Source: Escherichia coli | GTDB lineage: Bacteria; Pseudomonadota; Gammaproteobacteria; Enterobacterales; Enterobacteriaceae | Strand: one strand, 5' to 3' | DNA length: 4,409 bases | Assembly (NCBI RefSeq): GCF_003334785.1 | Contig: NZ_QOWV01000047.1 | Part shown: one piece after another, positions 1 through 4,083 of the stretch | Numbering within the stretch: position 1 is the first letter of the stretch | How the letters are laid out: every line of letters starts with the position of its first letter | Made by a program: the position numbers and the translations under genes | The notes under the pieces: generated by a model | What the model was told of the DNA's origin: nothing | The model's database searches: none | The model's input: only the letters and a program-made list of their open reading frames with translations

Positions 1-60
1 TGGCCGGCAAACCGGGTACGCGATCTGTTGCCCTGGAAAGTTGATCTGAGCTCTCAGTAA
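1..60 (+). CDS. 3' terminal fragment of an upstream ORF (partial, 19 codons then TAA); identity not determinable from this fragment, possibly murI by E. coli synteny
   Basis: Frame 1 is open from position 1 and reads WPANRVRDLLPWKVDLSSQ before TAA at 58-60. Codon usage is plausible. Too short to identify the protein; murI is only suggested because it lies upstream of rrnB/murB in E. coli K-12. Confidence 0.3.
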   Translation, partial: WPANRVRDLLPWKVDLSSQ

Positions 61-92
61 ATATCAATACGGTTCTGACGAGTCGCTTACGA

Positions 93-190
93 CAAATCCG
101 CCGGGAGCGGATTTGAACGTTGCGAAGCAACGGCCCGGAGGGTGGCGGGCAGGACGCCCGCCATAAACTGCCAGGCATCAAATTAAGCAG
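93..190 (+). other. Distal rrnB terminator-region remnant with three stem-loops and a 5S rRNA 3'-end-like segment
   Basis: Matches my recollection of the sequence between rrnB T1 and T2 (GACAAATCCGCCGGGAGCGGATTTGAACGTTGCGAAGCAACGG...). Stem-loops at 94-114 (AAATCCGC/GCGGATTT), 118-132 (CGTTGC/GCAACG) and 144-162 (GGCGGGC/GCCCGCC). AACTGCCAGGCAT at 166-178 resembles the 3' end of 5S rRNA. Confidence 0.6.
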
Positions 191-225
191 AAGGCCATCC
201 TGACGGATGGCCTTTTTGCGTTTCT
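191..225 (+). terminator. rrnB T2-like rho-independent terminator
   Basis: GC-rich inverted repeat GGCCATCC (193-200) / GGATGGCC (205-212) with a 4-nt loop TGAC, followed by TTTTTGCGTTTCT (213-225). Sequence matches the rrnB T2 terminator as carried on common expression vectors. Confidence 0.8.
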
Positions 226-310
226 ACAAACTCTTCCTGTCGTCATATCTACAAGCCATCCCCCCACAGATACGGTAAACTAGCCTCGTTTTTGCATCAG
301 GAAAGCAGCT

Positions 311-1339
311 ATGAACCACTCCTTAAAACCCTGGAACACATTTGGCATTGATCATAATGCTCAGCACATTGTATGTGCCGAAGACGAACAACAATTACTC
401 AATGCCTGGCAGTATGCAACCGCAGAAGGACAACCCGTTCTTATTCTGGGTGAAGGAAGTAATGTACTTTTTCTGGAGGACTATCGCGGCACGGTGATCA
501 TCAACCGGATCAAAGGTATCGAAATTCATGATGAACCTGATGCGTGGTATTTACATGTAGGAGCCGGAGAAAACTGGCATCGTCTGGTAAAATACACTTT
601 GCAGGAAGGTATGCCTGGTCTGGAAAATCTGGCATTAATTCCTGGTTGTGTCGGCTCATCACCTATCCAGAATATTGGTGCTTATGGCGTAGAATTACAG
701 CGAGTTTGCGCTTATGTTGATTCTGTTGAACTGGCGACAGGCAAGCAAGTGCGCTTAACTGCCAAAGAGTGCCGTTTTGGCTATCGCGACAGTATTTTTA
801 AACATGAATACCAGGACCGCTTCGCTATTGTAGCCGTAGGTCTGCGTCTGCCAAAAGAGTGGCAACCTGTACTAACGTATGGTGACTTAACTCGTCTGGA
901 TCCTACAACAGTAACGCCACAGCAAGTATTTAATGCGGTGTGTCATATGCGCACCACCAAACTCCCTGATCCAAAAGTGAATGGCAATGCCGGTAGTTTC
1001 TTCAAAAACCCTGTTGTATCTGCCGAAACGGCTAAAGCATTACTGTCACAATTTCCAACAGCACCAAATTACCCCCAGGCGGATGGTTCAGTAAAACTGG
1101 CAGCAGGTTGGCTTATCGATCAGTGCCAGCTAAAAGGGATGCAAATAGGTGGGGCTGCGGTGCACCGTCAACAGGCGTTAGTTCTCATTAATGAAGACAA
1201 TGCAAAAAGCGAAGATGTTGTACAGCTGGCGCATCATGTAAGACAGAAAGTTGGTGAAAAATTTAATGTCTGGCTTGAGCCTGAAGTCCGCTTTATTGGT
1301 GCATCAGGTGAAGTGAGCGCAGTGGAGACAATTTCATGA
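311..1339 (+). CDS. murB: UDP-N-acetylenolpyruvoylglucosamine reductase (MurB), FAD-dependent, peptidoglycan precursor synthesis
   Basis: 342-aa ORF whose translation I recognise as E. coli MurB. Residues R159, S229 (codon AGT 995-997) and E325 fall at the known catalytic positions. Shine-Dalgarno-like AGGAAA at 299-304, 6 nt before ATG 311. Stop TGA 1337-1339. Confidence 0.96.
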
Positions 1340-2329: not shown

Positions 2330-3280
2330 TTATTTGCGTAGTCTGACCTCTTCTACCGCATGATTAGCACTTTTCGTCAGGATTAAACTGGCGCGCTCAC
2401 GAGTAGGTAGAATATTTTGCTTTAAGTTCAGCCAGTTGATCTCTTTCCACAATGTCATGGCAGTCTTAATCGCTTCTTCTTTAGTTAATTTCGCGTAGTT
2501 ATGAAAATAGGAATCCGGGTCGGTAAAAGCCCCTTCGCGGAATTTCAGAAAACGGTTGATATACCATGTCTGAAGTAAGTCTTCCGGTGCATCAACATAT
2601 ATCGAAAAATCGACAAAATCAGAAACAAATACATGATGTGGATCGTGTGGATAATCCATCCCGCTCTGTAAGACATTTAACCCTTCAAGAATTAAAATAT
2701 CAGGCTGAACAACCGTTTTATCTCCATCCGGGATCACATCATAAATAAGATGTGAGTAAACAGGTGCTGTAACGTTTGGCACGCCGGATTTGAGATCGGA
2801 AACAAACTTCACCAGGCGATGCATATCATACGATTCCGGGAAGCCTTTCTTCTTCATCAGACCACGTTCTTTCAGAACCTGATTAGGGTGAAGGAAGCCA
2901 TCTGTAGTGATCAGTTCAACACGACGATGTTCCGGCCAACGGCTTAATAGCGCCTGCAATACACGGGCGGTTGTACTTTTCCCCACCGCGACACTGCCAG
3001 CAATACTGATAATGTAAGGAATGCGTTGCCCGTTGGTACCAAGAAACTGTTCCAGAACTGCCTGACGGCGCAGATTCGAGCTTATATAGAAGTTCAGCAA
3101 ACGTGACAAAGGTAAATAGATCTCGGCAACTTCTTCTAACGAGAGATCTTCATTAATACCTTTGAGACGGGCGATCTCATCTTCCGATAACGTCATAGGT
3201 ACGGAATCACGCAGAGCTGCCCACTGGTTGCGGTCAAACTGTAGGTAAGGCGTCATTAACGTTTGCTCTTTTATACTCAT
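2330..3280 (-). CDS. coaA: Type I pantothenate kinase (CoaA), first step of coenzyme A biosynthesis
   Basis: Translation from ATG at 3280 (minus strand) gives the 316-aa protein [20 protein letters not shown]..., which I recognise as E. coli CoaA. Walker A P-loop GSVAVGKST (residues 95-103, nt 2972-2998 on the - strand) contains K101. The six-frame ORF runs further upstream to an ATG at 3436 (368 aa), but the recognised protein starts at 3280. No strong Shine-Dalgarno sequence upstream. Confidence 0.93.
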
Positions 3281-3545
3281 AAGCATGTTTCTGGCGGTCA
3301 TAGCTCTATCGGCAAAGCGATATTTGCCATGGCGCGTCACAGTTCTGTTGAATGGGTTAATGGGCAGGAGGGTAACACCAGATGGGGAGGAATAATAAGA
3401 AAAAATCTCTGCCAGGAAGCTATCGTTGAAAAGCAATGTGACAGATATTCCATCTGATAAAAAGAATTATGGTTTAGCAGGAGCGCATTGTTGAGCACAA
3501 TGATGTTGAAAAAGTGTGCTAATCTGCCCTCCGTTCGGCTGTTTC

Positions 3546-3598
3546 TTCATCGTGTCGCATAAAATGTGACCAATAAAACAAATTATGCAATTTTTTAG
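3546..3598 (+). promoter_or_regulatory. A/T-rich upstream activating region (UP-element-like tract, possible Fis site) of the thrU-tufB operon promoter
   Basis: CAATAAAACAAATTATGCAATTTTTTAG (3571-3598) lies immediately upstream of the -35 hexamer. One candidate Fis-like 15-mer, GCATAAAATGTGACC (3557-3571), has G at position 1, C at position 15 and an A/T-rich centre. Fis activation of this operon is established in the literature; the exact site placement here is my inference. Confidence 0.4.
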
Positions 3599-3627
3599 TT
3601 GCATGAACTCGCATGTCTCCATAGAAT
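3599..3627 (+). promoter_or_regulatory. Sigma70 promoter of the thrU-tyrU-glyT-thrT-tufB operon
   Basis: -35 TTGCAT (3599-3604), 17-bp spacer, -10 TAGAAT (3622-3627), then the GC-rich discriminator GCGCGC (3628-3633), typical of stringently controlled stable-RNA promoters. Predicted transcription start about 3634-3636, a few nt before the mature thrU 5' end (3642). Confidence 0.75.
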
Positions 3628-3641
3628 GCGCGCTACTTGAT

Positions 3642-3717
<76 letters not shown>

Positions 3718-3725
3718 TCAAGTCC

Positions 3726-3810
<85 letters not shown>

Positions 3811-3926
3811 ATTTCGGCCACGCGATGGCGTAGCCCGAGACGATAAGTTCGCTTACCGGCTCGAATAAAGAGAGCTTCTCTCGATATTCAGTGCAGAATG
3901 AAAATCAGGTAGCCGAGTTCCAGGAT

Positions 3927-4001
<75 letters not shown>

Positions 4002-4007
4002 AGATGT

Positions 4008-4083
4008 GCTGATATAGCTCAGTTGGTAGAGCGCACCCTTGGTAAGGGTGAGGTCGGCAGTTCGAATCTGCCTATCAGCACCA
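4008..4083 (+). tRNA. thrT: tRNA-Thr (anticodon GGU)
   Basis: 76 nt. Acceptor stem GCTGATA/TATCAGC, anticodon stem CACCC/GGGTG with loop TTGGTAA (anticodon GGT), T-loop AGTTCGAATCT, encoded CCA (4081-4083). Confidence 0.95.

Follow-up and report, generated by a model that had tools for sequence, protein, structure and literature searches.

The 5' region of coaA in Escherichia coli: an open upstream frame, a mapped transcript start and two in-frame start codons

The coaA locus and the frame upstream of it

The window analysed here, a stretch of 4409 bases from Escherichia coli (contig NZ_QOWV01000047.1), is the murB-birA-coaA-thrU-tufB region, and the element in question is the 5' end of coaA, together with the long reading frame that stays open upstream of it on the minus strand. 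CoaA, a type I pantothenate kinase, catalyzes the rate-controlling step in coenzyme A synthesis. We consider it very likely that positions 3270–3436 hold the 5' end of coaA, an 82-nt 5' untranslated region (UTR) and the core promoter, that no N-terminal extension is encoded there, and that translation begins at two starts, Met1 and Met9. This assignment is built on a transcription start site (TSS), two N-termini, the absence of a Shine-Dalgarno (SD) sequence and the non-coding evolution of the extension, each taken from the present analysis or from cited data. The features of the region are as follows.

2330–3280, minus: coaA coding sequence (CDS), 316 aa plus stop, the long isoform from ATG 3280 (RefSeq annotation)
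3254–3256, minus: ATG at codon 9, internal in-frame start of the 308-aa short isoform (N-terminomics; PDB 1sq5)
3257–3280, minus: codons 1–8, A-rich initiation region, predicted to be unpaired, with nucleotide-level constraint (synonymous diversity)
3284–3286, minus: in-frame ATG two codons upstream of 3280, a candidate start that would give MLM-SIKEQ
3299–3301, minus: in-frame ATG seven codons upstream, in the leader helix (predicted unpaired probability 0.02)
3281–3362, minus: coaA 5' UTR, 82 nt, with a predicted stem-loop at 3335–3294 followed by unpaired CAGAAACAUGCUU (mapped TSS and fold)
3362, minus: coaA TSS (RVS_(II)-4173131 converted to the window)
3360–3406, minus: putative coaA core promoter, with a T-rich block, an extended −10, and discriminator and start CCTGCCCAT
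3363–3466, minus: upstream portion of the open extension, with TTG 3436 in it; promoter and upstream DNA that the mapped transcript does not reach (upstream of TSS 3362)
3469–3467, minus: TAA closing the coaA frame upstream (frame walk from ATG 3280)

Positions 3204–3734 are 100% identical to 4174950–4175480 of E. coli K-12 MG1655 (NC_000913.3), so that K-12 data are directly applicable here; subtracting 4171746 from a K-12 (U00096.3) coordinate gives the window coordinate. The identity of the gene is clear. Its product matched the TIGR00554 (panK_bact) equivalog at 480.2 bits (cutoff 235, E = 2.6e-144), carries the P-loop ATP-binding motif GxxxxGKS/T as GSVAVGKST, and is identical to PDB 1esm_A (316 residues). 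For comparison, the 80 closest Enterobacteriaceae coaA loci were collected in one scan of GTDB species representatives, at 90–100% protein identity and a median CDS nucleotide identity to the window of 79%. Counts over 80 species below cover these GTDB loci, and counts over 81 sequences cover the coaA orthologue set.

Walked upstream from ATG 3280, the coaA frame stayed open through 3466, or 62 sense codons. Some other Escherichia lack the closing TAA and have an open frame of 70 codons. Within the frame, ATG codons stand at 3301, 3286, 3280 (the RefSeq start) and 3256 (codon 9), with a GTG at 3340 and a TTG at 3436. Opening of this length is within chance (P = 0.05–0.09): when the 361-nt intergenic region was shuffled 20,000 times with its dinucleotides preserved, at least 62 open codons arose in 5.3% of the shuffles and at least 52 in 8.7%. 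No usable SD sequence was found at any coaA candidate start, as measured by the best duplex energy with the 16S anti-SD (+0.4 to −3.3 kcal/mol, vs. −4.3 to −6.4 kcal/mol for the neighbouring genes). Across the orthologues (n = 81), the median was −2.5 kcal/mol. The individual values, all coaA candidates being on the minus strand, were:

TTG 3436: −3.3 kcal/mol, the best among the coaA candidates and still weak
GTG 3340: +0.4 kcal/mol
ATG 3301: +0.3 kcal/mol
ATG 3286: −1.9 kcal/mol
ATG 3280: +0.2 kcal/mol
ATG 3256: −2.1 kcal/mol, with the sole SD-like sequence, AAGAG, 9 nt upstream
Neighbouring genes: murB −4.3, birA −6.4 and tufB −6.3 kcal/mol

An earlier, sequence-only reading of this DNA had anticipated much of this. 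It had described the frame as open 5' of the recognised start, which the frame walk bears out, and had found no convincing SD, which agrees with the duplex energies. Its figure of 52 open codons understated the opening, and its list of in-frame ATGs (3436, 3301, 3286, 3280 and codon 9) holds for the last four, the first being the TTG; GTG 3340 was absent from it. Of the 52 residues in the N-terminus that it called Ser/Tyr-rich, 5 are Ser and 3 are Tyr, so that this description was overstated.

Comparison across species gave no sign of selection on the frame. Upstream of the coaA start, the 80 species had a median of 10.5 open in-frame codons (quartiles 7 and 20), with at least 52 in 8 of the 80 loci. 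Stops occur 2–22 codons upstream in most genera, and Escherichia albertii already has a TGA at codon −22. Alignment of E. coli with Citrobacter placed an indel of ~20–30 nt and another of 1 nt within the extension. Among six Escherichia, variable sites were distributed over codon positions 1/2/3 as 4/8/5 in the extension (3281–3466) and as 11/3/112 in the CDS. Variable sites per base within Escherichia amounted to 0.091 in 3281–3466, 0.132 in the CDS and 0.278 further upstream; the lower variation in 3281–3466 is due to the conserved promoter block and the leader, both described below. The 52-aa extension peptide had no family match in NCBIfam. Judged from these comparisons, the extension does not evolve as coding sequence, and its frame is probably open by chance.

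Transcript start, promoter and leader

Differential RNA-seq by Romero et al. 2014 (Table S2; PMC4681348) lists a reverse TSS, RVS_(II)-4173131, marked "Overlap with RegulonDB: YES", and a forward TSS, FWD_(I)-4173404. TSS coordinates were converted by adding 1977 to the U00096.2 coordinate and then subtracting 4171746, with the length of U00096.3 taken from the record. The offset of 1977 is what we take to be the difference in length between U00096.2 and U00096.3, the length of U00096.2 being presumed. The conversion put the forward TSS at 3635, a position that fits the thrU promoter, since TAGAAT lies 8 nt upstream and thrU (3642) begins 7 nt downstream. From the reverse TSS at 3362 it follows that TTG 3436, 74 nt further upstream, is in promoter DNA. 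GTG 3340, ATG 3301 and ATG 3286 are all inside the mapped coaA transcript. Neither Kim 2012 nor Ettwiller 2016 gave a match for coaA or its coordinates in their TSS tables, whose completeness is uncertain.

The mapped TSS coincides with the most conserved part of the intergenic sequence. A 47-nt block, ATTTTTTCTTATTATTCC-N6-CATCTGGTGTTACCCTCCTGCCCAT (3406–3360, minus), is present in 80/80 species and is conserved more tightly than the coaA synonymous sites; its core, the 22-mer CTGGTGTTACCCTCCTGCCCAT, was likewise found in 80/80 species at ≤2 mismatches, 58–114 nt from the coaA ATG. Relative to the TSS, the T-rich block (3406–3389) occupies −44 to −27, and the last T of the extended −10 TGtTACCCT (3377–3369) is 7 nt away. 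A conserved T-rich part is followed by a spacer hexamer that varies, then by an extended −10, discriminator and start that are invariant, and finally by a leader that drifts in length. This pattern and its coincidence with the mapped TSS point to a core promoter footprint, and the 3360–3406 block is best read as the coaA core promoter.

Other readings of the block were considered by inspection. A sigma-54 promoter was rejected as its GG and GC elements (GG..GC) would stand 2 nt too far apart, and a sigma-32 promoter as the CCCCATCT run is species-variable and there is no CTTGAA element. The invariance of the block might mean that an extra regulator also binds there. Separately, a second conserved patch, GGAATATC(T/C)GTCACATTGCTTTTCA, was seen at 3425–3456 (minus), about −63 to −94 from the coaA TSS. 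It is present in Escherichia and Citrobacter, is weaker elsewhere, and could be a transcription-factor site.

The E. coli leader was predicted to fold at −25.6 kcal/mol (z = −1.96), and its inferred length in other species was 61–117 nt. In the minimum-energy fold, CAU 3331–3329 pairs with AUG 3301–3299, the in-frame ATG at codon −7. RNAalifold recovered the helix with compensatory changes in 18 sequences (Escherichia, Citrobacter, Intestinirhabdus, Pseudescherichia, Franconibacter, Atlantibacter and one Enterobacter). In an 11-pair version of it, 74.7% of cells were paired vs. 24–47% with the partner strand slid, and the covariation score was 0.149 vs. 0.050 in shuffles, with 0/500 shuffles reaching the native score. 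Other genera have helix strands of quite different sequence (e.g., AGCAUC/GAUGCU and GAGCCA/UGGUUC). Duplexes between native 5' and 3' leader strands reached −15.4 kcal/mol vs. −12.2 kcal/mol for cross-species duplexes, and 0/5000 permutations reached the native value. The conserved AAUGAC/AAUGGC motif contains the −7 ATG and is conserved because it is a helix strand; on this predicted structure, ATG 3301 is most likely part of the helix and not a start. An indel of 1 nt puts the −7 ATG out of frame in the Citrobacter freundii group.

Several further observations concern the leader. In the C. freundii group (L012 and L015–L018) a 1-nt deletion lies ~25 nt before the coaA ATG, and Met9 is also missing. 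The first ~25 nt of the transcript (3338–3362, minus) are conserved in most genera as CAUUGUCC(A/U)(A/G)AUUAACUGAAAUGUGA and are altered in Escherichia (CAUUAACCCAUUCAACAGAACUGUGA). A search of 3200–3660 on both strands against Rfam returned only a chance miRNA match (E = 0.99) and no cis-regulatory RNA family. Pairing of the leader 5' end (CAUUAAC/AUUAAC) with codons 7–9 (GUUAAUG) was tried and rejected, as it was no better than chance (−7.6 vs. −8.3 for shuffled leaders; mean z = +0.24 over 60 distinct sequences).

Starts in use and neighbouring features

Published N-termini identify the starts. In the deformylation-assisted N-terminomics of E. coli K-12 by TRAINSPOTTER 2026 (PMC13245402), coaA is among 68 genes in Table S2 with two or three N-terminal proteoforms (row 65, n_TIS = 2). 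One coaA site, 4175026, corresponds to window 3280 and was identified by the peptide SIKEQTL... (residues 2–17); the other, 4175002 (ATG +8), corresponds to window 3256 and was identified by MTPYLQFDR (residues 9–17). No coaA initiation site upstream of 3280 is listed there. The PDB holds both forms, a 316-residue CoaA chain (1esm) and a 308-residue chain from Met9 (1sq5). ATG 3280 and ATG 3256 share one frame and both lie downstream of TSS 3362. The heterogeneity is thus that of Met1 and Met9, and there is no evidence for use of the upstream ATGs.

Met9 is present in 67/81 sequences and Met7 in 8; the six with neither are five of the C. freundii group and one Superficieibacter. Residues 9–316 of CoaA align to positions 2–310 of the TIGR00554 profile, which marks residues 1–8 as a dispensable tail. 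The nucleotides that encode this tail are highly constrained. From the final 13 bases of the leader through the first codons, the sequence CAGAAACAUGCUU-AUG-AGU-AUA-AAA-GAG-CAA-ACG-UUA-AUG hardly varies between genera, and six-codon windows starting at codons 1–4 had the lowest synonymous diversity in the gene across the 80 species (normalised entropy 0.17–0.20, vs. a median of 0.75 and 0.55 in the next-lowest window elsewhere). This synonymous constraint over codons 1–8 persists in species without Met9. Across species, A makes up 49% and C 10% of the first 27 nt of coaA. No stretch of the predicted mRNA is more unpaired than positions 0 to +9, with a probability of 0.87 in E. coli and a mean of 0.68 over the 81 sequences, against means of 0.31–0.51 outside this interval. 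Predicted unpaired probabilities of the individual start codons were 0.79 for AUG1, 0.51 for AUG9, 0.31 for AUG-2 and 0.02 for AUG-7. These predictions suggest that initiation at coaA is independent of an SD and uses a start region that is A-rich and exposed.

The sequence-only reading had expected weak, heterogeneous initiation with two N-terminal isoforms, and the Met1 and Met9 forms in the N-terminomics and in the PDB agree with it. It had also allowed that the long extension may be just untranslated leader; in our assignment 3362–3281 is the 5' UTR and 3436–3363 is promoter DNA. Each of the checks that it proposed has an answer in published data or in the comparisons above: N-terminal proteomics gives exactly two coaA N-termini, the 5'-end map places the TSS downstream of 3436, and the cross-species frame comparison, carried out here, returned no coding-type pattern in the extension. 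Two products of ~36.4 and 35.4 kDa, and only two protein species, were reportedly described by Song and Jackowski (J Bacteriol 174:6411, 1992). The same study is said to have noted poor promoter, ribosome-binding-site and codon-usage signals, and the claim that coaA is inefficiently translated rests there. A full-text search for statements on coaA translation returned metabolic-engineering papers only, and the main text of the retapamulin preprint does not mention coaA.

The remaining features of the window lie outside the coaA 5' region.

311–1339, plus: murB
1336–2301, plus: birA
3642–4083, plus: thrU-tyrU-glyT-thrT tRNA cluster, followed by the start of tufB

The thrU(tufB) operon promoter is at 3622–3635 on the plus strand, with TAGAAT at 3622–3627 and a Class I TSS at 3635, 7 nt before tRNA-Thr. 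A forward Class II TSS (4173940 in U00096.2) falls at about 4171 after conversion, and the tufB ATG follows 27 nt later. Window positions 1–90 hold the 3'-terminal part of a transposase gene of the IS66 family (ISCro1-like) and its terminal repeat (...CTGACGAGTCGCTTAC); at the junction, ~90/91, this runs straight into the rrnB terminator T2 region, which precedes murB. Window 1–330 was found at ≥80% coverage in 0/5426 complete E. coli genomes, and the insertion junction is absent from that collection.

Alternatives and known systems

Several points weigh against the assignment of 3270–3436 to promoter, leader and two starts. The placement of the TSS uses an offset of 1977 that rests on a presumed U00096.2 length, and its sole check is the placement of the thrU TSS. 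The coaA TSS is of "Class II", that is, TAP-enriched without a clear coverage step (Romero et al. 2014; PMC4681348), and further coaA TSSs upstream of 3362 are possible. A sigma-70-like match, TCAACA-17-CATAAT, is present at 3494–3466; it was not adopted as the coaA promoter, as it falls in the most variable intergenic part and is unconserved even within Escherichia. The RNA accessibilities are predictions. N-terminomics would be blind to initiation at 3301, since Arg-C-type cleavage would leave (M)TAR as the N-terminal peptide, which is below a detectable length. The most substantial point concerns ATG 3286: this position is ATG in 66/81 sequences, and in Atlantibacter the annotated position is AAA, so that of the two only the −2 ATG remains (MLKSNTEQTIMTPY). 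Kosakonia and Phytobacter show the reverse, with AAG at the −2 codon and the annotated ATG retained. Together these arrangements imply that either ATG suffices in some lineage, and a minor MLM- isoform in E. coli is possible.

A third isoform from AUG 3286 (MLM-SIKEQ, 318 aa) besides Met1 and Met9, with the two AUGs of the tandem AUG-CUU-AUG serving redundantly as starts on an mRNA that lacks an SD, is accordingly the alternative that fares best, although we think it unlikely. It would be served by the position of AUG 3286 within the mapped transcript, by CATGCTT being among the most conserved leader bases, and by the −2 ATG being the likely start in Atlantibacter. The N-terminomics lists two starts only, however, where an MLM- peptide of detectable length was expected (PMC13245402). 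Predicted accessibility is also lower than for AUG1 (0.31 vs. 0.79). Only two protein species were reportedly seen in 1992. As a separate observation, an ACA at 3288–3286 (minus) overlaps AUG 3286, 8 nt before the annotated start. Table 1 of Sauert et al. 2016 (PMC5001579) lists coaA with a cleaved ACA (MazF) at a distance of 8 nt from the start, and a cut at this ACA would create a 5' end only two bases away from AUG 3286.

Somewhat less likely again is a wider reading, in which the coaA 5' region is a conserved Enterobacteriaceae expression-setting module that post-transcriptionally fixes or regulates the CoaA level and the isoform ratio, possibly with the MLM- isoform from AUG 3286. The parts of such a module may be the near-invariant weak promoter, the covarying stem with its drifting sequence and length, the SD-less tandem-AUG region, and the synonymous sites frozen over codons 1–8.

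We regard it as improbable that the upstream AUGs are regulatory starts, as upstream open reading frames (uORFs) or standby sites, that tune Met1 initiation and do not yield isoforms. The C. freundii group offers the best case for it, as there the out-of-frame −7 AUG opens a 7-codon uORF (ATG ACA GCC AGA CCA TGC GTA TGA) whose stop and the main ATG overlap in the sequence ATGA, as is typical of coupled translation; the wide conservation of AAUGAC/AAUGGC could be taken in the same sense. In E. coli, however, the −7 AUG is in frame, so there is no uORF, nearly all of it is predicted to be paired (unpaired 0.02), and the motif is explained by the conserved helix strand.

Very little can be said for a real N-terminal extension from TTG 3436 or GTG 3340, giving a larger CoaA isoform, and we hold it to be most improbable. 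The 62 open codons, the best SD-like match at TTG 3436 (−3.3 kcal/mol) and the low variability of 3281–3466 within Escherichia relative to DNA further upstream (0.091 vs. 0.278) would favour it; but the opening is no longer than chance allows, 3436 is upstream of the TSS at 3362, upstream stops in most genera and frame-breaking indels interrupt the frame, third-position bias is lacking (4/8/5), the conservation is accounted for by a promoter-shaped block and the leader, the peptide has no family, and N-terminomics lists no upstream start. Equally far-fetched is a small protein encoded by the 3360–3406 block on the plus strand, where a perfect AGGAGG (3366–3371) precedes ATG 3382 by 10 nt and the downstream AATAATAAGAAAAAA is conserved: the ATG becomes ATT, TTG or ATA, or is shifted by 1 nt, in Klebsiella, Raoultella, Pseudescherichia, Intestinirhabdus, Atlantibacter and others, with the DNA spacing kept across those genera, so the reading frame is unconserved, and the small open reading frame (3382–3429) was rejected.

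In the preferred reading, that of promoter, untranslated leader and two starts, transcription begins at 3362, driven by a weak promoter with an extended −10 (TGtTACCCT) and the T-rich upstream block, which is almost invariant across Enterobacteriaceae. The leader stem-loop would bury the in-frame AUG 3301, and the same fold would leave the A-rich, unpaired, SD-less region exposed. Ribosomes would then favour AUG 3280 and start less frequently at AUG 3256 (Met9), giving the known 316-aa and 308-aa isoforms. Start choice would be set by accessibility and A-richness, and the weak promoter and the SD-less start would together keep CoaA abundance low.

The published 5'-end map and the N-terminal proteomics agree with the conventional coaA annotation, to which the cross-species frame test adds that the extension is non-coding. 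The promoter footprint, the leader helix, the frozen synonymous sites and the interchangeable tandem ATGs are modest refinements of a weakly expressed housekeeping gene. The value of coaA is that of a clean example of an SD-less gene with constraint on promoter, leader helix and first eight codons, which could help the modelling of SD-independent initiation or the tuning of coaA expression in metabolic engineering.

The dual starts of coaA are already known biology, and the extension finding is ordinary. That there are two coaA isoforms and weak expression signals has been on record since 1992, and we know of no functional difference between the isoforms. The Met1/Met9 alternative initiation of E. 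coli coaA (PMC13245402) involves the same gene, sequence and starts (3280 and 3256), with no difference, and the locus is that system. In Table S2 of the same study it stands beside infA (+8), secB (+8) and infB, which like coaA have a pair of closely spaced in-frame AUGs and an N-terminus observed for each; distinctive of coaA are the lack of Met9 in some genera and the position of residues 1–8 outside the family profile. A second comparison is with the leaderless, proposed MazF-processed set of Sauert et al. 2016 (PMC5001579), in which coaA is listed. The primary coaA transcript of E. coli nevertheless has an 82-nt leader and is therefore not leaderless. The specialised-ribosome model is disputed. 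A further likeness is to the SD-less leadered mRNAs with an A-rich, unstructured start described by Saito, Green & Buskirk 2020 (PMC7043885): coaA has its 82-nt leader, no SD and 49% A, and it resembles them in having the start codon region as the most unpaired of the predicted mRNA, which suggests that the same mechanism may operate at coaA.

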